Shown here: piece after piece, positions 7,457 to 45,498 of the stretch
How positions within the stretch are numbered: the first letter of the stretch is position 1
How the letters are laid out: each line of letters opens with the position of its first letter
Source of the DNA: an uncultured Actinomycetes bacterium
GTDB lineage: Bacteria > Actinomycetota > UBA4738 > HRBIN12
DNA length: 64,000 bases
Reading direction: 5' to 3'
NCBI GenBank assembly: GCA_963710985.1
Contig: CAVQCI010000003.1
Span: forward strand, 1,026,096-1,090,095
Notes under the pieces: model-generated
Told to the model about the DNA's origin: nothing
What the model saw: only the letters and a program-made list of their open reading frames with translations
Databases searched by the model: none
Position numbers and translations under genes: made by a program

Positions 7457-7479
7457 CGTTCCCTCACCTCACTCGTCCA

Positions 7480-8583: not shown

Positions 8584-8894
8584 CGCTATTCCTTTCAGGG
8601 GTGTCTCGCCCCCGAACATGGTGCGGTGAGATGAAGAACCGACGAAACGGTTGTGTACGTTCGACGATTCTCGCTGCCACGGGTAGAAGGTGACGATGGT
8701 CGCTGCTGGCTGACCAGCGTGAGAGGCTGGCCCGACTCAAGCCAGGTGCGCTACCGAGTCGGCACAAGGCTTCATCAGGGCCGCCTCCGAGCTCGACGGG
8801 GACCTCCGCCGCGGAATCCGTGCGGTTGCGGTGGTGGCTGGAAGGATCCGACGACATGATATGGGGCTGGAGCGACTCCTGGGCAGGGTGGGGG

Positions 8895-9356
8895 TCATGC
8901 GTGGGGCGACGTCGCGAAGAGGATCGGGCAGACAAGGAACGCCGCTCGGCACAAAGGCGAGCAGAACTTGTAACTCTCGCCATCCCAACGAGTAGTAAGC
9001 GGACGCTGGTTGGTGATCGGCATCCCACAGATGGGGTCGAATAGACCCAGCGTGCCGGGCCGATCGCCGAAGATGTAGTCCATCTCCTCTCGCCAGCGGT
9101 ACCGCTCGCGATCTCCTTCGACTTCCACATCCGTTATGCCTTGCTCCGCGAATCGCGACAAGACCGCCTCGGCCTCGCCGAGGCTAAGGTGACGATCTCT
9201 CGCGAGGTCCTCGGCAGAAACGGACTTCCTCTCGCCACCGACAAGCGCAAGGTAAGCGGACCGCTCTGCGGCCGTCCCTAGATGCGCTCTCGCGAACTGG
9301 GTCCAGGGGTCATAACGCTCAGTGATCGTTCCTGTGCTCGCTCCACTCGTTCCCAT
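8895..9356 (-). CDS. YHS (TRASH-type) domain protein with helical N-terminal domain
   Basis: C-terminus FDPICGMPI...YKFCSPLCRAAF is a YHS/TRASH metal-binding motif. The gene is divergent from the lgt-ccmF ORF. Confidence 0.7.
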   Translation of the reverse strand: MGTSGASTGTITERYDPWTQFARAHLGTAAERSAYLALVGGERKSVSAEDLARDRHLSLGEAEAVLSRFAEQGITDVEVEGDRERYRWREEMDYIFGDRPGTLGLFDPICGMPITNQRPLTTRWDGESYKFCSPLCRAAFLVCPILFATSPHA

Positions 9357-9553
9357 GCCTGTGAGTCTGGTCGCTCCGTTCGCCGCCTTGATGTGGAACG
9401 CGTGAACGTCATGTGAAGCCCGGCGTGAATCGGGAGAGCCGCCGGGAGGCGGCTAGGAGGGCCGGATCACGCCCCACAGCGGGTGCGGGAGCCGCACACC
9501 GCGTTCACAACCTCCGCACAGAGTGAGCATCGACCGTCCCTAGCTTCGGTCGC

Positions 9554-12409: not shown

Positions 12410-12977
12410 GTATAGCCGGGTGGCTTCGGGGATCGCCGCCGCGGCGCTGGTCGGCGCCGTCGCCGCGATCGTCGTGTTCGGTGCGTTCCCGCACGTAGCG
12501 ATGGCGGGGACGATGTACGACGTCGCCCAGGTGTCGACCGCGCCGAGCATGGCTCCCCACGACGCCCAGGAGATCCCGGTCAGCGACGGGCTCAAGCGTG
12601 TGCTGCAGGGGCTCTTGTGCCAGTGCGGCTGCAACCTGGACGCCTACGGTTGCCAGCAGACGATGACCTGCAAGGTCTCGAGCGCGATGTGGCGTCAGGC
12701 CGCGCGGATGGTCGATCGCGACGGGAAGACGCCGACGGAGGCGCTGCAGTTGTTCGCCGCCGACTACGGCGAGTACGTCCTGGCCTCGCCAACGAAGGAG
12801 GGCTTCAACCTGACCGTGTGGGTTCTGCCGTTCGTCGCACTCCTGGTCGGAGGTGTGGTACTCGCCTTCGCTTTGCGCGGGTGGCGTCGCACGCCGCGAC
12901 CGATCGAGGCCGAAGCCCCAACCCTGGATCCCGCCCTCCGGGACCGGATCGAGCGTGAGCTGTTCGAGGAGGACTAG
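12378..12977 (+). CDS. ccmH: CcmH/NrfF-like cytochrome c biogenesis protein
   Basis: GAAGGAGG lies 6 nt before the ATG. The Cys motif LLCQCGC is followed by MWRQAARMVDRDGKTPTEALQLFAADYGEYVL and a C-terminal TM helix, matching CcmH architecture. Confidence 0.75.
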   Translation: MRRSSRGPRRRYSRVASGIAAAALVGAVAAIVVFGAFPHVAMAGTMYDVAQVSTAPSMAPHDAQEIPVSDGLKRVLQGLLCQCGCNLDAYGCQQTMTCKVSSAMWRQAARMVDRDGKTPTEALQLFAADYGEYVLASPTKEGFNLTVWVLPFVALLVGGVVLAFALRGWRRTPRPIEAEAPTLDPALRDRIERELFEED

Positions 12978-13442
12978 ATGCTGCTCGTAACGATCGTCTC
13001 GTTCGCGCTGTTCATAGCCGCGGTGACGATGATCGCAGCGCCGCTGTTGCGCCCCGACCCTGCAGATGTCCCCGATGAAGGCGACGACTTGTCTCCACGA
13101 CGGCAGCGCCTGCTCACGGACATCCGTGAGCTCGACCATGATCTGGCGACCGGCAAGCTCGACACCATCGATCACGAACGATTCCGGGCGACCGCCCTCG
13201 CCGAGCTCGCGAGCACGATCGAGGCGATGGATCAAGCCGGTCCGCCGATAGATGACGCTCGCGAGCCCGACGGCGAGGCGTTCGATGTTGATGCCTGGCT
13301 CGAATCCAAGATCGCCGAACGCAGGCAGACGCTGCAAGCCTCGCCCTGTTGCCCGGAGTGTGAGGCTCCGCGCGACCCGGGCGACGCGTTCTGCCGCCGG
13401 TGCGGCGCTCCCGCGTTCGCACGCGCGACGAAGGTGACGTAG
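12978..13442 (+). CDS. CcmI-like N-terminal module with C-terminal zinc ribbon
   Basis: The ATG directly follows the ccmH stop. An N-terminal TM helix is followed by RRQRLLTDIRELDHDLATGKLD (like the CcmI N-domain). The C-terminus is CPECEAPRDPGDAFCRRCG. Confidence 0.55.
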   Translation: MLLVTIVSFALFIAAVTMIAAPLLRPDPADVPDEGDDLSPRRQRLLTDIRELDHDLATGKLDTIDHERFRATALAELASTIEAMDQAGPPIDDAREPDGEAFDVDAWLESKIAERRQTLQASPCCPECEAPRDPGDAFCRRCGAPAFARATKVT

Positions 13443-13444
13443 CC

Positions 13445-14053
13445 GTGAGAACCGTCGATCAGCACCAAACAGCGCAGGATACGGACGAGCCGGGCGGAGA
13501 GACCGGCCGCGTCACGAAGCGCAGTGGCCGCTTCACCTCGATCGTCGTATCGATCGTGATCGGCGGTCTCATGCTTGGCGTCTTAGCGGCCGCAGCCAAG
13601 GTCAAAGGAGGTCCTCAGCTCGCCGCGAACCCCTCGGGCCCGGCCCCGGACTTCACCCGGCCGCTCCTGGAGGGCGAGGGTTCGATCACCCTGTCCGATC
13701 TTCGAGGACACCCCGTCCTGCTCAACTTCTGGGCGTCGTGGTGCGGGCCGTGCAGGGACGAGGCCCCCGTCCTCGCAGCGGGGTGGACGAAGTGGCGCGA
13801 CAGCGGCGTCATCTTCCTCGGAGTCGACACGCGAGACAGCAGGAGCGCTGCGATCGAGTTCGAGCGGCGCTACGGGGTGGAGTACCAGAGCGTCGTCGAC
13901 GAGAACGAGGAGGTCAACTACGCATACGGCGTGACCGGGTTCCCGGAGTCGTTCTTCATCGACGCTCGAGGTCAGATCGTCGCCAAGTACGTCGGGCCGA
14001 TGGATACGCCGACGCTCGATGCGTACGTCTCGATGCTGGTCAAGGGATCGTAA
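13445..14053 (+). CDS. TlpA/ResA/CcmG-like membrane-anchored thiol:disulfide oxidoreductase
   Basis: Contains FWASWCGPCRDEAP (a thioredoxin-type CxxC active site) after a TM anchor. GTG at 13445 was chosen because it follows the upstream stop; an ATG at 13400 is also possible. Confidence 0.85.
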   Translation: MRTVDQHQTAQDTDEPGGETGRVTKRSGRFTSIVVSIVIGGLMLGVLAAAAKVKGGPQLAANPSGPAPDFTRPLLEGEGSITLSDLRGHPVLLNFWASWCGPCRDEAPVLAAGWTKWRDSGVIFLGVDTRDSRSAAIEFERRYGVEYQSVVDENEEVNYAYGVTGFPESFFIDARGQIVAKYVGPMDTPTLDAYVSMLVKGS

Positions 14054-14065
14054 GGAGGCGTGACC

Positions 14066-14746
14066 GTGCAACGAGCCAACGTCGCGATCTTCCTCACGGC
14101 CGTCGCGTTGATCGGTCTCGCGCCGCTCATCCTTGCCGTGGCATCCGTCGCTCGTCGCCGCGCAGATGGCGGGGGCGCTGGACGACGTGGCCGGCGCCGG
14201 CTCGCCGTCGCCGGGATGGCGAGCCTACTGCTCGTTGGAGTCACGGTCCTGGCAGCGTGGGCACTCGCGGGCAGGACGCAACCGGGGGCCGGATCTGCGT
14301 CGGGCATGCGGGGGATGGGCGCCGGTTCCGGCGGGATGTCGACCCACGTGCGCGTACCTCGCACGCTCGCGGGGCTCAAGATCACGGCTCTCACGCGTGG
14401 TGATGATGCGATCGCCGAAGTCACCACACTCCACGGCTCGGCGTTCCCGCTCGTCGATGCCGCTGTCGCCCGGTACGGAGACCGGGTCGACGTGTGGGTG
14501 TCGTCTGCGCCCGACGTCGCGACCGCCCGGCGAGAGGTCGACGAGATGCGCATCCGGATCGCCGACGGGGGAACGCCGTTCGCCACACCGACCCTCGTCC
14601 GCACCGCAGGACGCGTGTTCACCACCTCGGGGATGGGGGAGCGGCACTTCTTCTTCTCGTCCGGTCGCGACGTCTGGTGGATCAGCGCTCCTGGGCCGTT
14701 CGCGGAGGCGGCGCTCCATGACCTCATGGGAGGAGCAGCGGCATGA
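14066..14746 (+). CDS. Hypothetical membrane protein (2 TM helices plus soluble domain)
   Basis: AGGAGG lies 7 nt before the GTG at 14066 (alternative GTG at 14060). The gene is translationally coupled to its neighbours. I recognised no family. Confidence 0.55.
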   Translation: MQRANVAIFLTAVALIGLAPLILAVASVARRRADGGGAGRRGRRRLAVAGMASLLLVGVTVLAAWALAGRTQPGAGSASGMRGMGAGSGGMSTHVRVPRTLAGLKITALTRGDDAIAEVTTLHGSAFPLVDAAVARYGDRVDVWVSSAPDVATARREVDEMRIRIADGGTPFATPTLVRTAGRVFTTSGMGERHFFFSSGRDVWWISAPGPFAEAALHDLMGGAAA

Positions 14747-15090
14747 TGACCATCCATCTCCTCGGCGGTGTGGGGCTTGCCGTGCTCGCGATCGCGACGG
14801 CGGCCGCGTTCCTCGTACGTCGAGCCGTTCCGCGCGCGACCCTCGCTGCCTGGGCGCTCGCCCTGCTCCTCGTGCAGGTGGCGACGGGCATGCTTCTGCT
14901 CACCGCGACGAACGAGGGTCCAGGCCCCGTCCACGTCGCGGTGCCGCTGGCCGCTCTCGCGGTCGCAGGCGCGGCGCGGTTCTTCTCGTCCATGCGAGGG
15001 CGGGGTGGCACAGCGGTGCTCAGCGCGGCATACGCCTTCGTGGCGTTCGCGGCGCTCGTCGCCCTCGCAACGGGTCTGGCAGGCGGGTGA
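14743..15090 (+). CDS. Hypothetical integral membrane protein
   Basis: ATGA overlap with the upstream gene; 115 aa with four hydrophobic helices. Confidence 0.55.
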   Translation: MMTIHLLGGVGLAVLAIATAAAFLVRRAVPRATLAAWALALLLVQVATGMLLLTATNEGPGPVHVAVPLAALAVAGAARFFSSMRGRGGTAVLSAAYAFVAFAALVALATGLAGG

Positions 15091-15159
15091 GAATCCGATG
15101 ACACGATCCTGGAACGAGGGTGGCGTACCCTGCCTTCGATGAGGATGGGTGTCTGAACC

Positions 15160-15861
15160 TTGGGCGCGGCGACGATCCTCGTGGTCGACGACGAGCAGAA
15201 GATCCGCGACACCGTCCGGCAGTACCTCGAGCACGACGGGTACTCGGTGCTGGTCGCGGACAGTGGTCAGCGCGCGCTCGAGATCTTCGCTCGCTCGGAG
15301 CCGGACCTGATCGTCTTGGATCTGATGCTGCCCGATCTGTCGGGGCAGGAGGTGGCCCGCGCTATCCGCGAGTTGGCGCCGACGCCCATCATCATGCTGA
15401 CCGCGAAGTCGACCGAGGACGACCGCGTACAGGGCCTGAAGCTCGGTGCTGACGACTACCTCGTGAAGCCGTTCTCGCCGCGCGAGCTGATGGCACGCAT
15501 CGAAGCGGTTCTGCGACGAACGTCGAACCACGGCGATCGGCCGGGGGCGATGTCGTTCGAAGGTGGCAAGCTCTCGATCGATCGCGAGGCGCGCGAGGTG
15601 ACCGTGGAGGGGGAGTTCGTGGAGCTCACCCGGAGCGAGTTCGACCTCCTCCTCGCCCTCGCGTCGCGGCCCGGTCGCGTGTTCTCTCGGTACGAGCTCG
15701 TCACGCGCGTCCAGGGTTACGACTACGAAGGCTATGAGCGCACGATCGATGCGCACGTGAAGAACGTCCGACGGAAGCTGCGCGATGACCCGAAGCACCC
15801 TCGCTACCTGGTCACCGTGACCGGCGTCGGCTACAAGCTCGGCGTGAAAGCCGATGGGTAG
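15160..15861 (+). CDS. OmpR-family response regulator
   Basis: Receiver motifs ILVVDDE, DLIVLDLMLPD and LTAK, followed by a winged-helix output domain (TVTGVGYKL). Confidence 0.9.
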   Translation: MGAATILVVDDEQKIRDTVRQYLEHDGYSVLVADSGQRALEIFARSEPDLIVLDLMLPDLSGQEVARAIRELAPTPIIMLTAKSTEDDRVQGLKLGADDYLVKPFSPRELMARIEAVLRRTSNHGDRPGAMSFEGGKLSIDREAREVTVEGEFVELTRSEFDLLLALASRPGRVFSRYELVTRVQGYDYEGYERTIDAHVKNVRRKLRDDPKHPRYLVTVTGVGYKLGVKADG

Positions 15862-17248
15862 GTCCTACCGGCTCCGGCTGGTCGCGGCCTTCGCCGGCGT
15901 CGGGATAGGGGCGGCGGCCCTGACCGCTCTGCTCGTGAACGCTGCCTTCAGTCCGAGGTTCGACCTGTACGTCCAGCAGCAGCGGCAGGTCCACGAGCAG
16001 CAGATGCAGGCGGCGCTGGCTGATTCCTACGCGAAGATGGGCGGATGGAACACCGCTGACCTCAACGGACTCGCCCCGTTGGCGTTGATGGACGGTGGGA
16101 CGCTCCGGCTCCTCGACGCGCAAGGGCGACAGGTGTGGGACGCGTCCGCCGGTCCAGGCTCGCGACTCGCTCAGATGCAGCACACGATGAGTGGGGGATC
16201 GACGCTCGGGCCTGAGGACCGGGTGCCGGTCACGGTCGGCCACAACACAGTCGGTACCGCCGTGATCAGGTTCCCGGTGTCCGGGCTGCTTCCGCAGGAC
16301 CAAGCGTTCCGCGCGTCGGTGAACCGGCTGCTCGTCCTCGGTGGCATCGCCGCCGCCGTGTTCGCCGTGATCGCCGGAGCCGTCCTCGCTCGTCGGGCCG
16401 TGCGTCCCGCCCTGGAACTGACCGAGGTCGCGAGGTCCGTCGCCGCCGGTGACCGGTCTCTTCGTGTGGTCCCCGACGCGACCGAGGAGTTCGCGGCGAT
16501 GGCGCGCGCGTTCAACCAGATGGCGGACACGGTCGCCGAGGAAGACGAGCTTCGCCGAACGTTCGCGGCCGACGTCGCCCATGAACTCCGTACCCCGCTG
16601 GCGGTCTTGCTCAGCCAGGTCGAAGGGATGCAGGACGGCGTGATCGGCGCCGACCCCGTTGCGCTTTCTTCGCTGCACGAGGAGACGCTCCGCATCGGGC
16701 GGCTGGTCGCCGACCTCGAGACCCTCGCGTCCGCCGACGCCGCCGGCTTCACCCTCGCACCCGTGCAAACCGACCTCGACGTCCTCCTCGGGGACGTCGC
16801 CGCCGAGTTCGCCGGCCTCGCGGATGCGCGCAACGTCGCGATCACCGTCGATACGGAGCCCCTTAGCCTCGTCCTCGACCCGAGTCGCATCAAGCAGGTG
16901 GTCGCCAACCTCGTCTCGAACGCGGTGAAGTTCACACCGGAGGGCGGCGCCGTCTCGCTATGGCTTCGCCGCGAGGGGGACGAGGCGTGCGTCGCTGTTA
17001 CCGACACGGGTCCGGGCATCCCCGAGGATGAGCTGCCCCATGTCTTCGAGCGGTTCTTCCGTGGACGCGATGTGCGCGCAGGTGGTTCCGGGATCGGTCT
17101 GAGCGTCGCGCGTGAGTTGGTAGTGGCGCACCACGGCTCGCTCAGCGTCACGAGCCGCGCCGGCCAGGGCGCTCGATTCGAGATGAGGCTGCCGGTGAGT
17201 ACGCCCGTCGCGGCGACCACGGCGCAGACGTCCGACCGCTCGAGCTGA
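15854..17248 (+). CDS. Sensor histidine kinase (TM, HAMP, HisKA, HATPase_c)
   Basis: H-box FAADVAHELRTPLAV, N-box NLVSNAVKFTP and G-boxes DTGPGI and GSGIGLSVA. Overlaps the response regulator stop. Confidence 0.9.
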   Translation: MGRSYRLRLVAAFAGVGIGAAALTALLVNAAFSPRFDLYVQQQRQVHEQQMQAALADSYAKMGGWNTADLNGLAPLALMDGGTLRLLDAQGRQVWDASAGPGSRLAQMQHTMSGGSTLGPEDRVPVTVGHNTVGTAVIRFPVSGLLPQDQAFRASVNRLLVLGGIAAAVFAVIAGAVLARRAVRPALELTEVARSVAAGDRSLRVVPDATEEFAAMARAFNQMADTVAEEDELRRTFAADVAHELRTPLAVLLSQVEGMQDGVIGADPVALSSLHEETLRIGRLVADLETLASADAAGFTLAPVQTDLDVLLGDVAAEFAGLADARNVAITVDTEPLSLVLDPSRIKQVVANLVSNAVKFTPEGGAVSLWLRREGDEACVAVTDTGPGIPEDELPHVFERFFRGRDVRAGGSGIGLSVARELVVAHHGSLSVTSRAGQGARFEMRLPVSTPVAATTAQTSDRSS

Positions 17249-17342
17249 CGGTTCCATCGCCGCGAAGGTCGCGTCGTTCGCGCACAGGCCCTTCACGGCG
17301 CGTTCACACGCTTGTCCGAAGTTGCATGGCGGAAGGTACGCC

Positions 17343-17699
17343 ATGAAGACCCGGACGCTGGTGATCGCAGGAACGCTCGCGGCGACGGTCCTCGTCTTGC
17401 TCGTCGTGCTCGGCTGGCCGAGGCCGGCGACCGAGACGCAACCACCTGCGGGATCGATCTCTGCACCCGAAGCCCAGTTGATCTGGTATGCGATGCAGTG
17501 GCACGACTCCGCAGTGAGCTCTGGCGACCGCGGAGGTGCGGCGACGCCGTGTCGTCTCCACCGGCTCGGGCTCAACGTGACGACCACCCTCCACCGAACC
17601 ATCCCTTCTCTCTCTGAGCTGGGCCCGGCGCGGCTGAGTGGCCACACCCGGTTCCAGACAGGGTGGGAGGCAGTGCCGAGCGAAAGGGCCGAGAGATGA
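17343..17699 (+). CDS. Small membrane-anchored hypothetical protein
   Basis: GGAAGG lies 8 nt before the ATG. N-terminal anchor is MKTRTLVIAGTLAATVLVLLVVL. The stop overlaps the next start (ATGA at 17696-17699). Confidence 0.45.
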   Translation: MKTRTLVIAGTLAATVLVLLVVLGWPRPATETQPPAGSISAPEAQLIWYAMQWHDSAVSSGDRGGAATPCRLHRLGLNVTTTLHRTIPSLSELGPARLSGHTRFQTGWEAVPSERAER

Positions 17700-18355
17700 C
17701 ATCGCGAACGGCATCGCACGCGACCGACCATCGCGCGAACCACAAGACCGCCGCCATCCGCAAGGCCGAGCGTCGCCGCGCGGCGGAGCGTCGAGCGGCG
17801 CGCAAGCGTGCGCTGCAGATCACGGGTGCGATCGTCGTCGTCGCCGCGCTCGGGTACCTCGCGACGCGGAGCTCGTCGGGGGAGAAGGCTCCGCCGGTCT
17901 CGCTGGCAGGTATCCGAGCGGTGTCGAACACCGAGTTCCCGGCGAGCGACGGCAAGTCGGTGACCCTGTCGCAGTTCGCGGGAAGCCCCCTCGTCCTCTA
18001 CTTCTACGAAGGGCAGTCCTGCGGCGCGTGTCAGACGCAATTGGCCGACATCCAGAAGGAGTTCCCGCAACTCCAGGCGACTGGTGCGCACGTGCTGGGC
18101 GTCACGACGGACCCCGTTGACGTCTCGGCCTCGGTCGCGTCGCAGCTCGGGCTCTCGTATCCGATCGTCGAGGACGTCGATCACCAACTCGGTTCGGCGA
18201 TGGGAACGTTCGAGGCGAGTGGCCACATGGGCCCGGCAGACCAGCACTCCGTCGTCGTGCTGGGCGCCGACGGATCCGTCGCGTGGCGCCAACTCGCGGG
18301 GACGACGATGTACGTGGCCCCGGACGCGATCTTGAGCGCCGTGAAGGGGGCATAG
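17696..18355 (+). CDS. Membrane-anchored AhpC/TSA-type redoxin
   Basis: A TM anchor is followed by a thioredoxin fold with LVLYFYEGQSCGACQTQL and VLGVTTDP. Confidence 0.75.
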   Translation: MTSRTASHATDHRANHKTAAIRKAERRRAAERRAARKRALQITGAIVVVAALGYLATRSSSGEKAPPVSLAGIRAVSNTEFPASDGKSVTLSQFAGSPLVLYFYEGQSCGACQTQLADIQKEFPQLQATGAHVLGVTTDPVDVSASVASQLGLSYPIVEDVDHQLGSAMGTFEASGHMGPADQHSVVVLGADGSVAWRQLAGTTMYVAPDAILSAVKGA

Positions 18356-18613
18356 ATGACCTCCTCACTCCGCTATCTGACGTCGCCGGACTGCCACCTG
18401 TGTGAGCGCGGGAGGGACATCGCCGAGAAGCTCGCCGACGAGGCTGGGATCGAGCTCGTCGAACTCACATGGACCGAGCCGTGGGCACGCGAGCGGATCG
18501 AGCGAGATGCCGTGGCCTTCCCCCCGGCGCTCTACCTCGAAGATAGGCTCCTCGGGTACGGCCGCCTCTCAGAGCGCCGCCTCCGCAAACTCGTGATGGC
18601 GGTGCCCGCATGA
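18356..18613 (+). CDS. Glutaredoxin-like small thioredoxin-fold protein (DUF836-like)
   Basis: 85 aa with CHLC near the N-terminus. The ATG directly follows the upstream TAG. Confidence 0.65.
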   Translation: MTSSLRYLTSPDCHLCERGRDIAEKLADEAGIELVELTWTEPWARERIERDAVAFPPALYLEDRLLGYGRLSERRLRKLVMAVPA

Positions 18614-19686
18614 ACGGGCTCGTCTACTCTGCGTCCCTCATCGCGGCGTTCCTCGGTGGCGTCCTCGCGTTGTTCGCGCCGTGCTGCGTGGTCACGCTCT
18701 TGCCGAACTTCGTTGCGACCGCGGTGCGCCGCGGCGTGCGTGCGTTGCCAGCCACGACGCTGCTCTTCTCCACGGGCTTGGCCCTCGTCCTGCTCCCGAT
18801 CGTGCTGGGCGTCGGGGCTCTCGGCCACACGATCGGGCGTTACCACGCCGCGGTCTTCACGACGATCGGCATCTTCCTGATCGCCCTCGGCACCTACATC
18901 CTGACCGGGAAGCGGTGGTCGTTGCCGCTGCCAATGATGTCGAAGCCGAGCGGCAACGGGGCCACCTCGACGTTCTTCCTCGGGACCGCTTCGGGAGTGG
19001 CCAGCTCCTGCTGTGCGCCGGTCGTCGCCGGGGTGGTCGCGATGTCTGCGCTGAGCGGGTCATGGATCGGGGCGCTCGGGCTCGGGCTCGCGTACATCTT
19101 CGGCATGGTCTTCCCGCTGCTGCTGTTCGCGATCGCGGCGGTTCGGCATGGGCAACGGTCGAACCGGCCGCTTCGGAAGGTCACGATGTTCGGGCGGGAG
19201 CTCCTCTGGACCGACGCTGTGTCGGGCTCGATGTTCGTTCTGTTCGGCGCGATCACGTTCTTCCTCGGCATCAGCGGTGAGGGAAGCGTGACGCCCGGCC
19301 CACTCGCGGTCTGGGATCGCGTCGTGACCCGCCGGTTCGCCGACCTCGCTGCCGCGCTCGGTAAGACGCCCCTCGTGCTGCAGGCCGGGTTCCTGGTGCT
19401 GCTCGCCGTCCTCGTCGCGGTCCCTCTCTGGCGCACGATGCGCGCCGACGATGGAGGTGGAACCGCGGGAGGCCGGGGTGCTCGTGGCACACGTGTGCGC
19501 ACTACGACGAACCGGGAACGCGATCCGGTGTGCGGGATGGTCGTGCTCGTCCGGCCCGACAGCTTGTCGGCAGACTGGGACGCGAAGACCTACCACTTCT
19601 GTGCGGCGGCGTGCCGCGAACGGTTCGTCGAGAGGCCCGAGGAGTTCGTGAGGCCAGCGACCGCGTCCAGTGCCTCGTCTCGTTGA
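18610..19686 (+). CDS. CcdA/DsbD-like transmembrane thiol-transfer protein fused to a C-terminal YHS domain
   Basis: Six hydrophobic helices carry FAPCCVV and SSCCAPV. The C-terminus DPVCGMVV...YHFCAAACRERF is a YHS/TRASH motif. ATGA overlap with the upstream gene. Confidence 0.8.
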   Translation: MNGLVYSASLIAAFLGGVLALFAPCCVVTLLPNFVATAVRRGVRALPATTLLFSTGLALVLLPIVLGVGALGHTIGRYHAAVFTTIGIFLIALGTYILTGKRWSLPLPMMSKPSGNGATSTFFLGTASGVASSCCAPVVAGVVAMSALSGSWIGALGLGLAYIFGMVFPLLLFAIAAVRHGQRSNRPLRKVTMFGRELLWTDAVSGSMFVLFGAITFFLGISGEGSVTPGPLAVWDRVVTRRFADLAAALGKTPLVLQAGFLVLLAVLVAVPLWRTMRADDGGGTAGGRGARGTRVRTTTNRERDPVCGMVVLVRPDSLSADWDAKTYHFCAAACRERFVERPEEFVRPATASSASSR

Positions 19687-19779
19687 GGGGCACTTTCCGC
19701 AGCTTCATCGCGACATGTCACGAGCTTCACGTGGCCTTCACACGCTGCGAGTAGCCTGGGGGTCGAAAGGAGATCACAC

Positions 19780-20031
19780 ATGATGTGGGGCAACGACTGG
19801 GGTTGGGGCGGATGGGCCCTCGGGTTCCTGATGATGCTCGTGTTCTGGGGAGGTCTCGCGGCGCTCATCGTGCTGCTGGTTCGAGGAACAGACCGCACGA
19901 GCGACCGACAGGAGCCGCGAGGCGATCCGCACGACGCGGACGCGATCCTGCGGGAGCGCCTGGCGCGCGGTGAGATCTCGGTCGAGGAGTATGAGGAGCG
20001 CAAGAAGGTGCTCCAGGACGCGGGCAGCTAG
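19780..20031 (+). CDS. SHOCT-domain small membrane protein
   Basis: AAAGGAG lies before the ATG. A Trp/Gly-rich N-terminus and TM helix are followed by LRERLARGEISVEEYEERKKVL (SHOCT). Confidence 0.8.
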   Translation: MMWGNDWGWGGWALGFLMMLVFWGGLAALIVLLVRGTDRTSDRQEPRGDPHDADAILRERLARGEISVEEYEERKKVLQDAGS

Positions 20032-20348
20032 CTGACCGGCGGCGACGCTACATCGACCAGTGCCGTGTCTCGCGTGCTGATGTCTCGCGGATCCGCTCCG
20101 GGGATATGTCTCAGTGCCCGAGCGTTGGACCAACGTGAGCGGTCGGACTTGTCCCGCGACGGTCGTCATGAGCCCCATCCCCCGCGCGGTGATGCATCGT
20201 GGCGAAGACAAGTGGCACGAATGACACGGCCTAGGGCGTTGGCGCTGGTCGTGGCCGCCGCACTCGCAACATCATCCTGCTCGTGATCGGGGCCGCCCTG
20301 CGGGGTGGTTCGATCGGGACTAGACGATGATCCCGTCCTCAGCGCGTC

Positions 20349-20852
20349 TCACGACCTGCTTCGCAAGTCCAAGATCGCTTTCCCGGTCATCAGCGCCCCC
20401 ACCACGAAGATCAACGTGGCTAGATAGATGAGCCCCAGGTGGCCGAGCGTGTCGAAGTGGTTCGCGTAGTGGGCAGGGAGAGCGATCGCAAGAGCCAGAA
20501 CAGGGGACACGACGGCACCGATCCATGCCCAGCCTTGACCCCGTCTCACGCCAAAGGCGACCAGGAACAGCACCGCCAGACCGGTTGCGGCGATGAACCC
20601 CGAGATGGCGATCTGCAGATGACTGATGTACTCGTAGAGCGAAGGGCTGAACTGCTGGATCTGGTCCTTCCCGACGTTCACCTCGTTCGGGCCGATGCCG
20701 AGCTCGAGGAAGGCGTCGGTGAAGTTGCGGATGAAGAAGAGCACCGCGTATCCGATGAACCCGACCGCTGCGAGGCCCATGAGCCAGGAGCCCCACCGAA
20801 GCCACGGCTCTTCCTGATCGACGGTTCGCGGAGCGACTCCTGCCGTTGCCAT
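20349..20852 (-). CDS. Hypothetical integral membrane protein
   Basis: 167 aa with four hydrophobic helices. No family recognised. Confidence 0.55.
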   Translation of the reverse strand: MATAGVAPRTVDQEEPWLRWGSWLMGLAAVGFIGYAVLFFIRNFTDAFLELGIGPNEVNVGKDQIQQFSPSLYEYISHLQIAISGFIAATGLAVLFLVAFGVRRGQGWAWIGAVVSPVLALAIALPAHYANHFDTLGHLGLIYLATLIFVVGALMTGKAILDLRSRS

Positions 20853-20994
20853 CTGGATACCCCCATCCCCTGGATGGCTCGCGACTCTAGGTCAGTCGCC
20901 GACGATCTGCCAGCCGGCCGGCCCGAGAGCCGCGGGAGGTCGGCACTGAGTTTCGTCGGGGCCGGGTGGCGCTAAGGAAGCGCTGGATCGGTCA

Positions 20995-21040
20995 ACCGTG
21001 TGTCGCGAGGATTGATCCGCAGCGGTGGTAACCGTGTGTC
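20995..21040 (+). repeat. Tandem pair of ACCGTGTGTC motifs (36-nt spacing)
   Basis: Exact 10-mers at 20995-21004 and 21031-21040. The second is followed by AGCAGCTTAGAAGTCGGGC, as at 29461-29497. Confidence 0.7.
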
Positions 21041-21345
21041 AACGGACGGAGCAGCTTAGAAGTCGGGCCATGCAGTGCGGCGACGACGTGGCGGTGGGGG
21101 CACACGTCATGACGGGCCGGGGCCCCTCTACCAATCGGGAAGGCGGTGCGTCGCCCGTCCGCCGGTCGTCGTGGGATCCGGGGACTCCGTCGGGTCCAGA
21201 TCGAGGCATGGGCCCCTCGCAACATGACTTGACTCGGCCGTCCCCGCGGGTGGAGAGAGCGACTCGAAGGACGAGATCCTGCAACTGCGCGAGGACATGG
21301 CTCGTATCGAGTCGAAGATCGACGCGCTCACGCCGCCTCAGACGA

Positions 21346-21554
21346 AGACGCACGAAGGCCCCCGGAAGAACCGGAGGCCAACTGTGCCACGCGCGACCGG
21401 TTCATGACGGGTGCGACCCGTACGGTGCGTGCGTGCTGTGGGTGACACGATCGACCTAGAAGAACCTTCGGCCCCGCAGCCTCGGACACACATGGCCCAC
21501 AAGTCCTGATGTTGGCTCGCCCGATACCCGATCTGCGGTACGGCTTTGGGAGTC
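21346..21554 (+). repeat. Structured repeat, long copy B
   Basis: Same start (AGACGCACGAAGG), GC hairpin GGCCCCCGG-AAGAA-CCGGAGGCC, identical core up to 21440, and a 3' extension matching 1800-1897. Confidence 0.8.
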
Positions 21555-21854
21555 ACGACGCGGGTGCGTTCCGCTTGTGGTGGGTGAAGCGCCGCGAGGG
21601 AACAGGCCATCCGTTGACTCCGCGTAACCGAGTACCCTCGGCCTATGACGCAGGTGGTAGCCGTTGAGGGCAGGGCTGGCTTCTGGCACTGGATGTACTC
21701 CTGCGGCGCGGGCAGCCGGCGCTGGTACTACACCCGCGACGAGGCCCTCGAAGCGGGCAGGTTGCACGCAGACACCCACGAAACCAACCCGTCGTTCACC
21801 ACTCGACTCGCCACAGGCACCGTGCTGGTCGGCTCCAACCCGTCGCCCCTCCCT

Positions 21855-21860
21855 TAGGCT
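21855..21860 (+). promoter_or_regulatory. TAGGCT, candidate -10 hexamer for a leaderless transcript
   Basis: Fits TANNNT and lies 6 nt upstream of the TTG start at 21867. The same hexamer sits 7 nt upstream of start codons at 47449 and 48018 on the minus strand. Confidence 0.35.
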
Positions 21861-21866
21861 CGGCCC

Positions 21867-22733
21867 TTGACCGACGACTTCCGCGCCGCGCTGGCGGCCC
21901 TTCCGCCGAAGTCCCGCGACCTGATGCGCCGCGTCCTGATCGGCGACCAGGCCGACCGCGACGCCGTGTCCTACCGCCTGCGCCGCTATCGGGACGAGGC
22001 CGGCGACGAGGTTTCGGACGTGATCGACCTCTGCAGAGCTGAACCTGGAAGCCCGCGGAGGCATCGACCCGGAAGGCGTCTGCTCCGCTTGGCTGTCGTC
22101 GCTGTCTCGGCGATGTACGCGATGGTGATCCGGCCGCGGATGCTCACCTGGGGGGCGACGACAGAGGAGAAGACCGGTACATATCCCGGCGACGAGCTCG
22201 TGCCAGATCCCGACGGCGGGGCAACGATGGCCACGACCCTGCCAGCGCCACCCGAGAAGGTCTGGTCCTGGCTAGTGCAGATGGGAGGCGAGCGGGCAGG
22301 CTGGTACAGCTGGGACTGGTTGGACAACGACCGGGAACCGAGCGCGGACCGCGTCGTTCGCGAATGGCAGAACCTAGAGGTGGGACAGCATCTGCAGCGG
22401 CCACCCAAGGGCCCGACGAACTGGTGGACCGTGGTGATCCTGGAGCCGAACCGCACCATGGTGCTGCAGGCGAGCTACGACTCGACCGGCCGATCCTTCG
22501 ATCGGCGGTCCGGTACGGTGCCTCGGGCATATACGGAGGGGATCTGGGGCTTCCACCTTAGCGCCGTTCCTGAGGGCGGCACCCGTTTGGTGGTCCGGAC
22601 GCGGAACCGTAGCCGCCCGAGACTGCTCCATTGGCCTTTCGGGGTGCTGGTTGGGGAGCCTGTGCATTTCATCATGCAGACTCGTCAATTCCACAACCTG
22701 CGCACTCGGGTGGATGCGAACGTGACGCGGTGA
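21867..22733 (+). CDS. SRPBCC-family protein, read as one ORF with an N-terminal module of the DDLRAAL mini-gene family
   Basis: Residues 1-56 (MTDDFRAALAALPPKSRDLMRRVLIGDQADRD...DVIDLC) match 45499-45735 and 37766-38053. The remainder (WGATTEEKTGTYPGDELVPD...VWSWLVQMGGERAGWYSWDWLDN) is SRPBCC-like and may have its own start near 22113. Confidence 0.55.
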   Translation: MTDDFRAALAALPPKSRDLMRRVLIGDQADRDAVSYRLRRYRDEAGDEVSDVIDLCRAEPGSPRRHRPGRRLLRLAVVAVSAMYAMVIRPRMLTWGATTEEKTGTYPGDELVPDPDGGATMATTLPAPPEKVWSWLVQMGGERAGWYSWDWLDNDREPSADRVVREWQNLEVGQHLQRPPKGPTNWWTVVILEPNRTMVLQASYDSTGRSFDRRSGTVPRAYTEGIWGFHLSAVPEGGTRLVVRTRNRSRPRLLHWPFGVLVGEPVHFIMQTRQFHNLRTRVDANVTR

Positions 22734-23051
22734 GGACGTCTTATGGAAGGGTCGTGCGGCGGCAGGCAAGTGGATGCGACGTCATCCGCTTTGTGGATCG
22801 CCTGGCGGCTCGCATCCTTGAACGGGATCGTGCGTAACACTTCGCGTAACAACGCACGGGCACGCCGAGGGACTGACAGGTACTGAGAGGTACAGCGAAA
22901 CGGCTGCTCAGGCCCCTGACCAGCACGTTTGCCTCTCCCTTACAGGGCGAAGGTCGGGTTCGAGCCCTCAGCGCCCGCTCCTGAAGATCCTTCAGTATGC
23001 GTCCGTAAGATTCTGCCTAGCGAGGAACCGCCCAAGTCATAGGGCGGAGGA

Positions 23052-23266
23052 TCACGAATCCAGGTTCCGATGTGGGCGTTTCTCCATGTTCCTGGGGCGG
23101 CGTTGACGGACGCCGTTTCTTCGGAGTCGGGCGTCGCACCGTGCGCATGAGCGCGGAGCACGGATGCCCTCGCTCTCTTCGACGAGCTTCCCGTCCGGCC
23201 CGGCCAACACACGATCCGAGTGGCCGGTTCGCCGCACACGAAGCACACGTCCCCTGTCTCATTCAC
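23052..23266 (-). pseudogene. Possible small zinc-ribbon protein with a frameshift
   Basis: A GTG-start frame gives NETGDVCFVCGEPATRIVCW. A second frame continues AGPDGKLVEESEGIRAPRSCARCDARL, supplying two CxxC pairs only if one nt is restored near 23200. Confidence 0.25.
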
Positions 23267-23358
23267 CCGGGAACCCCAACGCGTAGGTTCACCTGATCGA
23301 TCGCAAGGCTAGATGAGGAGTGGGGTTTGAACCCTAGACGCCGATCAGGGTGGAAGTC

Positions 23359-23472
23359 GTGGGCACCGAGCCTGCCTCAACGGCACCGCTCAGCCGCGGA
23401 CGAGGCCTCCGCGCCCCGCTGGCGGACCTGCCGCCGCGCTCCCGCGACGTGCTGCGCCGCGTCGAGTCATAG
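23359..23472 (+). pseudogene. N-terminal fragment of the DDLRAAL mini-gene family
   Basis: Encodes ...LRAPLADLPPRSRDVLRRVES then a stop. It breaks right after RRV and runs into the AGACGCACGAAGG hairpin element, as at 48179-48232(-). Confidence 0.6.
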
Positions 23473-23520
23473 ACGCACGAAGGCCCCAGACTGCGCCGGG
23501 GGCCGACGTGCCAACGAGTC
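23471..23520 (+). repeat. Partial (5' part only) copy of the structured repeat
   Basis: AGACGCACGAAGGCCCCAGACTGCGCCGGGGGCCGACGTGCCAACGAGTC. A near-identical copy lies at 48129-48179 on the minus strand. Confidence 0.75.
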
Positions 23521-23632
23521 AGTGGAGAGGGGGGACCCCACCACCACCGTTCCCCGGTGGCGAGCTCCTCCGGACGTGAAGGTGAGCGGTGGATGGGGCA
23601 GTATGTTCGCCTCGGACACGGGGAGGCATCTG

Positions 23633-24262
23633 ATGGCTCCGATCACACCCGAGCGGTTCCACGAGGTCCACTGGCGCGTCATGTCCTACGCCGCCGGGAC
23701 CCATTTCCGAACCCGCTCGTTCGCGGAAGGGGTTGCGCTGGTCGAGGCGATCGGGCGGGCCAGCGAGAACTCGAGCCGGCGGCCGGATGTCGACCTTCGG
23801 GCCGACGGCGTCACCGTCCGGCTGACGGTGAACGAGCAAGGTCAGCTCGGCGAGGACGACTTCGCGCTGGCTCGCGAAATCTCCGAGGTCGCTCGCGAGC
23901 GCGGCGTGGAGGTCGACCTGTCGGGGTTGCAGATGATCCAGATCGCGGTCGATGCGATGGTGATCGCCGATGTGATGCCGTTCTGGGCGGCCGTCCTCGG
24001 GTACCGGGAGTTCGGCGACATCGTGACGGATCCGCACTTCACCGCCCCCGTCTGGTTCCAGCAGATGGACGCTCCGCGTCCACAGCGGAACCGCATCCAC
24101 ATCGATCTGTATGTCCCTGAGGATCAGGCGGAGGCTCGGGTCGCCGCGGCCGTCGCAGCCGGCGGACGCATCGTGAACGACTCGAGGGCGCCGCTGTGGT
24201 GGACGCTCGCCGACCCCGAAGGGAACGAGGTCGACGTTGCCCCTTGGCCCGATCGTGGCTAG
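23633..24262 (+). CDS. Two-domain protein: pterin-4a-carbinolamine dehydratase-like N-domain plus glyoxalase-like (VOC) C-domain
   Basis: GGGGAGG lies 8 nt before the ATG at 23633. The C-terminal half (PFWAAVLGY, RIHIDLYVP, LADPEGNEVDV) is glyoxalase-like. The N-half assignment is weaker. Confidence 0.6.
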   Translation: MAPITPERFHEVHWRVMSYAAGTHFRTRSFAEGVALVEAIGRASENSSRRPDVDLRADGVTVRLTVNEQGQLGEDDFALAREISEVARERGVEVDLSGLQMIQIAVDAMVIADVMPFWAAVLGYREFGDIVTDPHFTAPVWFQQMDAPRPQRNRIHIDLYVPEDQAEARVAAAVAAGGRIVNDSRAPLWWTLADPEGNEVDVAPWPDRG

Positions 24263-24314
24263 CGGATCGGTGGTCGAAGAGACCTGAAGCCGCGTGCGAG
24301 CCCCTCAGAACGGC

Positions 24315-24467
24315 ATGACGGTCGCGCACAGGTGGCGTGGCGTCTCGGCGTCTCGCCGGTCGTCTACCGCGAGCTCGAGGTCGGCACGCGCCTCGCCCTC
24401 GTTCGACACCTTTGACCGGATCTGCAAGCTGCACGGGTGGCCCCAAACGTTCGTCAGAAGCCTCTAG
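24315..24467 (+). pseudogene. XRE-like HTH mini-gene, frameshifted
   Basis: One frame gives AQVAWRLGVSPVVYRELEVGTR. Another gives SPSFDTFDRICKLHGWPQTFVRSL then a stop. The two halves are out of frame. Confidence 0.6.
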
Positions 24468-24489
24468 CGGACGTCCGAAACTCGGGTGT

Positions 24490-24907
24490 ACCATCCGCGG
24501 CCGCGAGCAACGCCTGCAGCAGGCCCTCTGGCTCTCCGATCTCCCTCCCGACGACTTGGTCCGGGCGCTCATCCCCACCATGTTCTCGGCGTCCGTGCCG
24601 GCGGAGGTGGTCGATGGCTTCGCCGCGAGCTTGGCGGCATTCCATCCGGCTGGGCTCCTGGCGATGTCGCGGTCGTTCGCCGAAGCGGACCTACGGGATG
24701 TCCTTCCGCGGATCGACGTGCCGACACTACTGCTCTACGGCGACCAAGACGTCCGCGCTCCGCTGGACGTTGCCGAGGCCCTGCACGCTGCGATCACGAC
24801 GTCGACGCTCGTCGTCTTGCCGGGGGTTGGTCATGGGAGTCAACCTCGAGGCGCCAGACCGCTTCAACACCGAAGTTCGCAGCTTCCTCCGATCGCTGGC
24901 GAAGTGA
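24490..24907 (+). pseudogene. C-terminal fragment of an alpha/beta hydrolase, frameshifted near 24835
   Basis: DVPTLLLYGDQDVRAPL...VVLPGVGH is in one frame and VNLEAPDRFNTEVRSFLRSLAK in another. No N-terminal nucleophile region is present. Confidence 0.6.
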
Positions 24908-25023
24908 GCCGTGTGTACCCGGTGGCCGCCGCACGATCGTCGGGCTCTGGCCGAGGTCGACGCAGAGTCCTGATCTGCGCATTGACCCGGCTGAGCCGCC
25001 CGCCTAGCGTCGAGGTACTTCTC

Positions 25024-25485
25024 ATGAGCGGGAAGGAGGACGGATGGCTACCGACCCAGCCGCTGATCTGGAATCAAGTCATCGAGCACTACCACCTGGC
25101 GCTCGACGCCTTCATGAAGGGGGATCACGGGCCCGCCAAGGTGCTGTTCTCGCAGCGGGACGATGTGACCCTGGGGAACCCCTTCGGCCCCTTCGCACGG
25201 GGGTTCTCGGAGGTCGCAGACACGATGGCGCGTGCCGCGTCGCACTACCGAGATGGTGAGGCGACTGGCTTCGACGCCGTATCCAGATACGTCACGCCTG
25301 ACCTCGCCTGCATCGTGGAGGTGGAGCGGCTGAGCTCCAAGGTCGGCGAACGGGAAGACGTCGCGCCGTTGAACCTCCGCGTCACCACCGTGTTCCGCCC
25401 GGAGGACGGCCGCTGGAAGATCGTCCACCGGCACGCTGATCCGATAACCACCGCCCAACCAGCCGACTCGGTGCTCGAAGGGTAG
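25024..25485 (+). CDS. SnoaL-like / NTF2-fold (DUF4440-like) protein
   Basis: 153 aa. YHLALDAFMKGD, VTTVFRPEDGRWKIVHRHADP and the length fit the ketosteroid-isomerase-like fold. A decayed paralogue lies at 37256-37695(-). Confidence 0.7.
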   Translation: MSGKEDGWLPTQPLIWNQVIEHYHLALDAFMKGDHGPAKVLFSQRDDVTLGNPFGPFARGFSEVADTMARAASHYRDGEATGFDAVSRYVTPDLACIVEVERLSSKVGEREDVAPLNLRVTTVFRPEDGRWKIVHRHADPITTAQPADSVLEG

Positions 25486-25569
25486 GTCGAGCTCTGCACG
25501 CTGTACGCGGAGGCGCGACGCACGATCGTCCAGACGCTGGTCGAGATCGACGCTGCCGCAGCCGACTGA
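25486..25569 (+). pseudogene. C-terminal fragment of the DDLRAAL mini-gene family
   Basis: VELCTLYAEARRTIVQTLVEIDAAAAD then a stop, starting immediately after the SnoaL TAG. It matches IDLCTLYPEARRTMVRLLAEVDAAG in 45499-45735. Confidence 0.6.
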
Positions 25570-25593
25570 ACGTCCTTAGCGAAGGAGACGACC

Positions 25594-25887
25594 GTGCGAG
25601 TCCTCGCTTGGCATCAAACACCGACCCTCACGAGGGAGAGGTACGAAGAGGTCGTGCGCCGACTCACCGGCGGCAAGACGCGTATCGAGTCGCCCGCCGA
25701 CCTGCCGTTCGACGGCCTACTGGTGCACGCCGCCGGCGAGGGGCCCGACGGGTTCTGCGTGTTCGACGTTTTCGAGTCCGAATCTGCGGTCGAGAGCTTC
25801 CGCGCCGCGCTCGGGTCCATCCCTCAGGACGTTGGGATCATGGAGCCGCCGCGGTTCTTCCCAGCTCATACCGTCTTCGTCCAGTAG
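25594..25887 (+). CDS. Small hypothetical protein (possibly ABM/Dabb-like fold)
   Basis: GAAGGAGA lies 5 nt before the GTG. 97 aa, acidic, with ordinary codon usage. Confidence 0.55.
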   Translation: MRVLAWHQTPTLTRERYEEVVRRLTGGKTRIESPADLPFDGLLVHAAGEGPDGFCVFDVFESESAVESFRAALGSIPQDVGIMEPPRFFPAHTVFVQ

Positions 25888-26470
25888 GCGCGCGGACGGT
25901 CTCGTCACCGGGGCCTCCCGCCTCGAATCTTCGACCGTCGTGGGGTGAGGGCCATGCGGGGGCCGCGGTTTCCGAGCCGCGTCGGCATTGGGACGCCGGC
26001 AGGCGCACGTCGCGTGTCGGCGCGCTCGTCGAGCGCGTCACCACCGACCCGTACCACCAGTTCGGCACGGTGATTAGCTCCTTGCCGCGCCCGCCGCGAC
26101 GAGCGCCTGCGCGTTCGCCATCGTCGCCTCATAGCCCTCACCGGCGAGTGCCATCTGCGCAGGAATGGTCTGCGCGCCCGCGCCGCCGCGAAACGCGGAG
26201 AGCAGTACCAGCGCGGGCGTTTCTGGATGCTCTGCCCTTGCGCGACGCCGGGCATGCCGCCCTGATCGGCGACCCTGACGCCAGCTGGGCGTCGAAGCGC
26301 TCTACTTGCGGGTTCGGCACGTCTTGCACGTCGCCACGGTCAGCGTCTCCTCAGGTGTCTCGTGCCCTCGCGGTGGTGTGCGTGTGTGGTCGGATGTTTC
26401 ACCCAACGTTGACGAGCACCGGCACGTCTCTTAAGTCGGTCTGGCGTGTAATCGGAACCGCAGGAAGAAG

Positions 26471-26554
26471 GCACGCACCGTACGGGTCGCACCCGTCATG
26501 AACCGGTCGCGCGTCGGCACGGTGGGCTTGGGGTTCACCCGGGCCCTCCGTGCC
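26471..26554 (-). repeat. Structured repeat, short copy C (core only, reverse orientation)
   Basis: The reverse complement carries the identical 42-nt core. Its 5' hairpin has different bases but preserved pairing (GGGC...GCCC, versus GGCC...GGCC in copy B). Confidence 0.75.
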
Positions 26555-37106: not shown

Positions 37107-37200
37107 ATGCAGAGAACTGCGGCGATTGGCGGTGGGCGCATCCGGGTCTCGTTGTGTAGAGGACGTAGTCGCGCTGAACTGTGTCGGGGATGGCAACGGG
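37105..37200 (-). pseudogene. Possible 3'-terminal remnant of a second tyrosine recombinase
   Basis: Translates to ...IPDTVQRDYVLYTTRPGCAHRQSPQFSA then a stop. This resembles, at both nt and aa level, the end of the 49928-50600 integrase (LPDQYDYIASRLNLVHTDATRASRSA, stop). The similarity is weak. Confidence 0.3.
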
Positions 37201-45488: not shown

Positions 45489-45498
45489 AGGTGAAGCG

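Follow-up and report, generated by a model that had tools for sequence, protein, structure and literature searches.

A two-hairpin repeat at five sites

The window analyzed here is a stretch of 64,000 nucleotides (64 kb) of contig CAVQCI010000003.1 from the assembly of an uncultured Actinomycetes bacterium, and its subject is a noncoding repeat of approximately 95 nucleotides (nt), made of two stem-loops, that occurs at five sites within it. The window has a GC content of 67% and is chromosomal in appearance, with genes that include alcohol dehydrogenases, extracytoplasmic function (ECF) sigma factors, an AraC regulator, peptidases, and an ABC binding protein. All five copies of the element (A to E) lie in three stretches, at approximately 1.2 to 5.4, 20 to 27.5, and 45 to 50 kb, in which the coding signal is weak or shifting and short duplications are numerous. 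These stretches contain full or fragmentary copies of a protein of 78 to 95 amino acids (aa), referred to below as the small protein, together with a duplicated SnoaL-like gene and three XRE/HTH_31 fragments. Throughout, the element is oriented so that hairpin 1 precedes the second stem-loop; this is the strand on which an earlier note on this DNA had read it, and it is called the forward strand here, with "reverse" denoting the opposite strand.

Three of the copies, A (1657 to 1753, + strand), B (21346 to 21440, +; the site originally reported), and C (26471 to 26554, −), share a core, CGCGCGACCGGTTCATGACGGGTGCGACCCGTACGGTGCGTGC, which is identical at 1703 to 1745 (+), 21390 to 21432 (+), and 26471 to 26513 (−). 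The earlier note had pointed out this identity in the three full copies and put its length at 42 nt; the actual length is 43 nt. No chance match to the core was obtained in 100 dinucleotide shuffles, even when 3 mismatches were allowed. Hairpin 1 lies at 1661 to 1701 in copy A and at 21350 to 21388 in copy B, while copy C combines a different stem sequence in this hairpin with the identical core. Copies D (23471 to 23555, +) and E (48089 to 48179, −) have a second hairpin that differs and do not carry the core. They had been taken for simple 5′ partial copies, which proved incorrect: E is a duplicate of D, with 84% identity over 122 nt that include 48 nt of an upstream gene fragment (for E, the small-protein fragment at 48185 to 48214), and what both have in common with A and B is AGACGCACGAAGGCCCC...GGGGGCCGACGTGCC.

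The five sites listed in the earlier note were all present in sequence alignments, and a covariance model of the unit (approximately 96 nt), scanned without filters over all 64 kb, recovered exactly these five. Copies A (match at 1655 to 1752 [−], 106.7 bits), B (119 bits), and C (97.6 bits) scored 98 to 119 bits, and copies D (21.8 bits, aligned over the full length of the model) and E (21.3 bits) scored 21 to 22 bits, with E values of approximately 0.01 to 0.02; every remaining match in the window had an E value of at least 0.5. A coding function was rejected, since the copies have no conserved reading frame in common and the insertions and deletions in the hairpin shift the frame. When all six translated frames were compared with 5.8 billion proteins, a single spurious open reading frame (ORF) overlapped the element.

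The length of approximately 95 nt given earlier holds for the unit, but the homology between copies A and B is longer, extending over approximately 215 to 245 nt. In copy B the element is followed by a module designated D1 (21445 to 21554, +), which lies between it and a gene for a 70-aa protein at 21645 to 21857. In copy A the extension (1754 to 1897, +) begins with an extra segment of 30 nt that has its own perfect hairpin (approximately 1757 to 1786) and continues with D1 (1788 to 1897); the two D1 modules, each 110 nt, are 89% identical. Copy C is homologous over 84 nt only, with a sharp stop at both sides. One shared end is constant and the extents are nested (84 nt in C, approximately 240 nt in A, and more than 600 nt in B). 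The copies occur in both orientations, 2 to 25 kb apart, and form no array. D1 was rejected as a structured RNA in its own right, since it is not stably folded on either strand (z scores of 0 to +1.7). The 30 nt of copy A (1757 to 1786) contain a perfect 6-bp hairpin, CCGGGA-TGC-TCCCGG, at 1768 to 1783, so that the insertion or deletion corresponds to a self-contained stem-loop.

Relatives were located via proteins of the neighborhood, and copies of the element were found in only three short soil-metagenome contigs. Contig L022 (JGI 3300040998) is 96% identical to positions 21242 to 21857 over 616 nt and has copy B in the same place. Contig L018 (JGI 3300040999) carries a B-type element, D1, and the 70-aa gene together with the left flank of copy C. 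A module of the D/E type is present in contig L020 (Logan assembly), whose 70-aa gene is approximately 80% identical. The 30-nt segment of copy A is absent from both L018 and L022, as it is from copy B. No copy was present in L019 or L021, which have distant homologs of the 70-aa protein, in L001, a contig of a related metagenome-assembled genome, or in L099, which carries a small-protein locus. D1 is conserved in L018 and L022 and is absent upstream of the 70-aa homologs in L019 to L021. Neighboring genes in related contigs, among them F420-type genes, hint at an actinobacterium-like soil organism.

The distribution in larger collections was equally narrow. A 20-mer of the core had no match in GTDB with one genome per species (596 Gbp; 185,579 species representatives) and none in the JGI metagenome contig set, which evidently excludes the short JGI contigs L018 and L022 that carry the element; exact 20- and 22-mers of the core had no match in viral contigs. 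A degenerate pattern for hairpin 1 gave 16 matches in GTDB and 76 in metagenomes, all due to chance and mostly inside coding DNA. The phage and plasmid collections, compared for near and distant DNA similarity, contained no match, and no known end of an insertion sequence (IS) or of a miniature inverted-repeat transposable element (MITE) was encountered there. The Rfam comparison suggested in the earlier note was also negative, with no match to Rfam 15 at gathering scores for the whole window and, for positions 21200 to 21700 at E values up to 10, only a 13.8-bit chance match to a microRNA outside the element. An attachment site derived from a tRNA or transfer-messenger RNA (tmRNA) was rejected, as the window contains neither a tRNA nor a tmRNA.

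Pairing, conservation, and junctions

Every member of the family, including the distant copy in L020, has the layout of two adjacent hairpins. Hairpin 1 has GCAC(G)/(C)GUGC as its outer helix, then a small internal loop (pyrimidine/purine), and a GC-rich inner helix of 6 to 10 bp whose sequence varies between copies; its foot sequences are GCACG-RA-GG ... CC-RAC-(N)GTGCC. The invariant core forms the second stem-loop of copies A, B, and C; its outer pairs are ACCG/CGGU, and its stem is ACGGGU-GCG-ACCCGU. The second stem-loop of D and E is a different nested hairpin, yet the model aligns it position for position, and this difference defines two subfamilies. The core stem pointed out in the earlier note (ACGGGT-GCG-ACCCGT) is present as described, but it shows no variation in any copy and is therefore evidence neither for nor against structure. 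A helix that would close the whole element, ACGCACG with CGTGCGT, had also been proposed. The complementarity exists in A and B, and C has GGCACG/CGTGCC; however, the 5′ GCACG has an alternative partner in the local CGTGC at the end of hairpin 1, and it is this local helix that D, E, and L020, all without the core, retain.

The pairing of hairpin 1 is preserved despite changes of sequence, as had been claimed. The two compensatory flips between copies B and C were confirmed, with pairs 19-39 and 23-33 both being C-G in B and G-C in C. Among the eight variants of hairpin 1, one pair is C-G in seven and G-C in copy C, and a third pair is C-G in D and E, U-G in A, B, and C, and U-A in L020, so that double as well as wobble changes are represented. 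The covariation count comprised 2 pairs with double changes, and 43 to 67 of 500 column shuffles reached the observed values; the score is lowered because the MAFFT alignment misregisters the outer helix of A, B, and L018. Whole units folded more stably than their shuffled counterparts, with z scores of −1.8 to −4.9.

The two parts of the element differ in how fast they change. Between copy C and L018 there are 5 differences in 153 positions of the left flank and 1 in 43 of the core, versus 11 in 34 of the interior of hairpin 1 (Fisher P = 8e-7). Copies A and B are 99% identical over a 71-nt stretch that contains the core, compared with 89% in the adjoining D1. The core is therefore constrained or homogenized, and the hairpin turns over fast yet remains paired.

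Loci stop being homologous precisely at the GCACG foot and immediately past the core. With the flanks denoted by letters and the element by "el," the window has the combinations Z-el-Y at copy B and X-el-W at copy C, while the relatives have Z-el-Y (L022) and X-el-Y (L018). These combinations fit a hairpin foot that is a preferred point of breakage or joining. An inversion of 21346 to 26554, between copies B and C, would yield the arrangement of L018, but this cannot be told apart from orthology of L018 with a second, paralogous locus; the source contig does carry another 70-aa paralog (P0066), which explains the arrangement equally well.

The active strand is probably opposite to the one read in the earlier note, judging by folding and substitution patterns. 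The reverse strand had the better fold in five of seven members, with z scores (reverse versus forward) of −2.3 versus −1.1 for A, −4.4 versus −3.0 for B, −3.8 (window +) versus −2.3 (window −) for C, −2.0 versus −1.3 for L018, and −4.9 versus −3.3 for L020. Copy D gave a tie, and copy E was the exception, with the reverse strand slightly less stable (−2.5 versus −2.9). Each of the seven wobble cells reads G.U on the reverse strand, where the forward strand would have C.A; of 111 cells, 92 are canonical on the reverse strand and 85 on the forward strand. Additionally, the one-sided changes in the alignment of A, B, L018, and L022 retain pairs on the reverse strand and disrupt them on the forward strand. 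The asymmetry amounts to approximately 5 independent events versus 1 (binomial P of approximately 0.2), and the strand preference is therefore a lean and not a result. The gene context favors the forward strand, on which stop codons stand directly 5′ of D and E.

Neighboring genes and other repeats

Several copies of the element lie beside remnants of the small-protein gene. Copy D abuts a truncated small-protein ORF (23407 to 23463, found by tblastn) whose stop codon, TAG, overlaps the first bases of the element; both D and E abut N-terminal fragments of this protein, and a 3′ remnant of its gene is found 150 nt upstream of copy A. The idea that the element is strictly tied to small-protein genes at their 3′ ends was rejected, as the association is significant only for A, D, and E and not for B, C, or L020. 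The small-protein family has no Pfam domain and is represented in the window by two full genes and at least seven fragments, at 45499 to 45735 (−), 37766 to 38053 (−), 21867 to 22058 (+), 23407 to 23463 (+), and 48185 to 48214 (−), with further sites at 24911 to 24964, 25486 to 25557, 37199 to 37255 (−), and 1459 to 1505. One fragment (aa 1 to 65) is fused in frame to an unrelated C-terminal part of 220 aa (21867 to 22733). The family has 56 homologs, nearly all from soil metagenomes.

The SnoaL-like gene is duplicated together with its flanks (24927 to 25540 versus 37810 to 37201; 615 nt, 89.6% identity, inverted), and both copies are bracketed by repeats of approximately the last 24 codons of the small protein, as if the gene were an inserted cassette. 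Beside copy E, three tandem, diverged fragments of an XRE/HTH_31 N terminus (...FPDMLAE.RQ.AGFT.GQVAW..GVSP...) occupy 46840 to 48035 on the minus strand, and a further coding fragment, ...CKLYGWPQTFV..., recurs at 3947, 4698, 24414, 46197, and 46754. The 70-aa protein downstream of copy B has Cys/His motifs (...WHWM.SCG.GSRRW...). In L020 and in one further contig, known without its DNA, the gene for a 57-aa homolog of this protein overlaps the stop codon of an XRE/HTH_31 gene, and the element with D1 stands where that gene would be in this lineage. The element and D1 were rejected as a decayed XRE gene, since tblastn found no similarity.

Copies A and B are direct copies of approximately 240 nt, 19.7 kb apart, and bracket a cytochrome c biogenesis and metal-related cluster (1657 to 21554). 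The cluster encodes a truncated P-type ATPase, a 951-aa Lgt-CcmF fusion, CcmH, two TlpA/AhpC-like (thioredoxin-like) proteins, a two-component system (OmpR-type regulator and histidine kinase), and DsbD-YHS. If A and B recombined, these 19.7 kb could be lost or amplified.

Other repeats occur in the same window. A second family of approximately 90 nt, GTGTACAGATAAGGAACGTTGTCCGCGG...CCGGCTATTCGAGGGGGAGGAG, is found at 40366 to 40455, 41230 to 41327, 45388 to 45489 (−), and 49686 to 49759 (−), as well as on the reverse strand of L018 at 109 to 137; one copy lies just 5′ of the ECF sigma factor gene at 41479 to 41943, and the family has no match in Rfam. The motif GAGCCACGGGAGGTCGGCACCGTG occurs five times on the plus strand, approximately 31 nt each, at 20927, 28873, 37079, 38409, and 63911. 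The reverse complement of the copy at 28873 reads AAGACGCACG and then GTGCCGAC and resembles hairpin 1 minus its inner palindrome. A perfect inverted repeat of 32 nt, TCCCGATTGGTCACCCGGCGCCCGCCGTCTGG, has its arms at 38468 to 38499 and 49843 to 49874, 11.3 kb apart.

Interpretation and comparison with known systems

The reading that we favor, although tentatively, is that of a lineage-specific, structured intergenic repeat similar to MITEs and to repetitive extragenic palindromic (REP) sequences, with a sequence-constrained core and a fast-evolving hairpin, rather than a free-standing RNA gene. The copies form a small paralogous family of at least two subfamilies, built on a module of approximately 95 nt with two adjacent stem-loops. 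At the level of sequence, the foot of hairpin 1 and, in subfamily 1, the 43-nt core are held constant; the stem and loop of hairpin 1 change quickly and stay paired. We infer that the copies spread at the DNA level, either through a putative trans-acting enzyme or through hairpin-promoted illegitimate or homologous recombination combined with segmental duplication, within an accessory region rich in duplications and pseudogenes in which the foot of hairpin 1 is a recurrent junction. Any role at the RNA level would depend on transcription; a transcript would form a very stable double hairpin, which would serve as a 3′ end or as an insulator between small accessory genes. Since no promoter or canonical terminator was called at copies A, B, and D and the homology of copy C ends exactly at the edges of the element, a self-contained RNA gene is argued against. 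The earlier note had offered the alternative "structured RNA or MITE" for a multicopy noncoding element; the multiple noncoding copies and the conserved hairpin structure are upheld, while neither an RNA gene nor a transposable element was demonstrated.

Several observations weigh against this reading. Neither the called genes of the window nor six-frame translations around copies B to E contained a transposase, RAYT, or recombinase domain. The inverted termini behind the MITE idea do exist, but they are just 6 to 7 nt long (ACGCACG...CGTGCGT in A and B; GGCACG...CGTGCC in C), too short to be told from an RNA helix or from chance at 67% GC. The flanks of A, B, and C have no consistent target site duplication, a 4-nt TTCT at C being unmatched elsewhere, and neither an IS match in the phage and plasmid collections nor a high copy number could be shown; beyond the window only one further locus is indicated, via the second 70-aa paralog on the source contig. 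Recent transposition is insufficient to account for an identical core beside a strongly diverged hairpin, so that selection or gene conversion is needed. The covariation of hairpin 1 is suggestive and, at eight variants, not significant, and template switching at quasi-palindromes could yield paired changes without selection. With regard to a terminator role, neither a promoter nor a consensus terminator was called on either strand at A, B, or D. The GC-rich stem is followed on the reverse strand by UUCGUGCGUCUU, an interrupted U-tract, and on the forward strand there is no U-tract. For termination in vitro, mycobacterial RNA polymerase requires a U-tract in addition to the hairpin (PMC3993855), and such a role is therefore doubtful on the forward strand and weakly plausible on the reverse strand.

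The alternative that survives best is that the copies are functionless debris of segmental duplication, with the pairing of the hairpin kept by quasi-palindrome template switching and the core by gene conversion. The setting of all copies amid many short duplicated fragments and probable pseudogenes, their very narrow distribution, and the lack of significant covariation agree with this explanation. However, the core has 0 to 1 changes while adjoining sequence is 11 to 32% diverged, at least four different flanks adjoin one and the same sharp end, and the foot of hairpin 1 and the overall architecture persist in L020, where coding DNA is only approximately 80% identical; we consider debris rather unlikely.

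A small RNA (sRNA) encoded on the reverse strand, or an RNA derived from a 3′ untranslated region, is an unlikely alternative as well. In such an RNA the core stem-loop and a single-stranded CAUGAA would be the functional or seed part, and hairpin 1, followed by UUCGUGCGUCUU, would be the fast-evolving terminator. The strand lean described above points in this direction through the better folding of the reverse strand in five of the seven members, the wobble cells, the canonical cells, and the one-sided changes, although its approximately 5 events versus 1 leave the binomial P at approximately 0.2. A real gene in the same orientation (1938 to 2453, −) lies upstream of copy A, but on the reverse strand B, D, and E have no co-oriented gene upstream. 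A further point in its favor is that sRNA paralogs usually combine a conserved core with a variable terminal hairpin. On the other hand, no promoter-like site was called, the sequence upstream is unrelated in C and shifted by the 30-nt insertion in A, D1 is not stably folded, the U-tract is poor with no terminator called, and Rfam has no match. A free-standing sRNA gene also fits poorly with the absence of the element from all 185,579 GTDB species representatives.

An improbable explanation is that the element is a cis-regulatory leader, or a promoter and operator region, of the 70-aa gene downstream, with the palindromes ACCGGT, TCATGA, and ACGGGT-GCG-ACCCGT as operators and TACGGT as a −10 hexamer. 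The element and D1 do stand approximately 200 nt upstream of this gene in copy B, L018, and L022, where the module takes the place of the XRE-family gene found in front of the homolog in L020 and one other related contig, and the core has the sole TANNNT hexamer site in the module on that strand. However, A and C have no 70-aa gene downstream, D and E do not have the core, and the element is missing upstream of the 70-aa homologs in L019, L020, and L021; moreover, no promoter was called, no leader or riboswitch in Rfam matched, and the core stem is invariant. Two specific candidates in the core were rejected: an ECF or sigma-70 promoter, as there is no consensus match, and a copper operator of the CsoR/RicR type. 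Such operators have the half-sites TACCC..GGGTA, and those in the core are in the wrong order (GGG..CCC).

Least probable among the alternatives is that the element is comparable to an integron attC site and belongs to an undescribed cassette-shuffling system unrelated to attC in sequence, acting as a folded single strand with conserved foot boxes, a variable stem, and a crossover at the foot of the hairpin. Integron attC sites have conserved foot sequences and a central part that is variable but paired, and one of their strands folds better. By analogy, a recombinase encoded elsewhere in the genome would recognize the foot boxes and the 43-nt core, and the hairpin foot would be the place where small accessory genes enter, change orientation, or are replaced. 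This would explain the flank combinations X-el-Y, Z-el-Y, and X-el-W, whose exchange point in the window, L018, and L022 is exactly the GCACG foot. A stem that varies yet pairs between conserved foot sequences, the strand-asymmetric folding, and neighbors that are small and cassette-like (glyoxalase, SnoaL, pterin dehydratase/glyoxalase domains, and small proteins of no known kind), with a SnoaL gene flanked by direct repeats of the small protein's 3′ end, are further points of likeness. In contrast to attC sites, the element does not have the core sites RYYYAAC and GTTRRRY; GTTGGCC occurs on the reverse strand of A and B only, and its partner arm is UUC, not AAC. Furthermore, the window encodes no IntI and no integrase (Phage_integrase) or recombinase domain, the elements are few, occur in both orientations, and do not form the single-orientation array of an integron, and integrons are not known in this kind of organism. 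Ordinary recombination between dispersed repeats explains the rearrangements too, one example being the 1.5-kb segment between two repeats of the small protein's N terminus that is absent from L018 and L022.

If the element is only a lineage-specific hairpin repeat, it is of local interest as a marker of a recombination-prone accessory region and adds one more small structured repeat family outside the proteobacteria, in which MITEs and the REP doublets known as REPINs have been studied best. It would matter more if the core proved to be the recognition site of a recombinase or transposase, if the element proved to be an RNA of the reverse strand, or if the 240-nt direct copies A and B mediated gain or loss of the 19.7-kb cluster.

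Compared with intrinsic terminators and clusters of 3′-end hairpins, the element is similar in that its GC-rich stem-loops follow stop codons directly (D and E), that two hairpins are adjacent, and that the stems evolve by compensatory change (PMC3993855; PMC8355165). It differs from them in having no U-tract on the forward strand and an interrupted one on the reverse strand, and in its invariant neighbor of 43 nt and conserved foot, which terminators do not have.

MITEs, such as Correia and ERIC elements and the PATEs derived from IS200/IS605, are small, noncoding, multicopy, foldable, and intergenic, have short inverted termini, and occur where rearrangements have their edges. The element is likewise a small, noncoding, multicopy, folding intergenic sequence with candidate inverted termini (ACGCACG/CGTGCGT) and lies at such edges. 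In contrast to MITEs, it has no target site duplication, parent IS, transposase, or uniform length; it has one shared end with a variable extent, and its internal hairpin is far more diverged than its core.

The REP/REPIN-RAYT systems resemble the element in that their repeats, imperfect palindromes outside genes, are short, fold into stable hairpins, and are present several times, in both orientations, between genes and near stop codons (Bertels and Rainey 2011, PMC3116915; PMC3337134). Like them, the element is lineage specific and keeps its structure while its sequence drifts. REPs are, however, 20 to 40 nt long and nearly uniform, number tens to hundreds per genome, typically form inverted doublets, and are accompanied by a single RAYT gene (PMC3116915; PMC3337134), whereas the element studied here consists of two unrelated tandem hairpins, with a hypervariable stem (up to 32% differing) beside an invariant 43-nt core, and occurs as 5 copies in a 64-kb window without a RAYT, in a high-GC soil bacterium and not in a proteobacterium. 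Matching no described RNA or mobile-element family among those tested, the element is a new, narrowly distributed, small hairpin-forming bacterial repeat.

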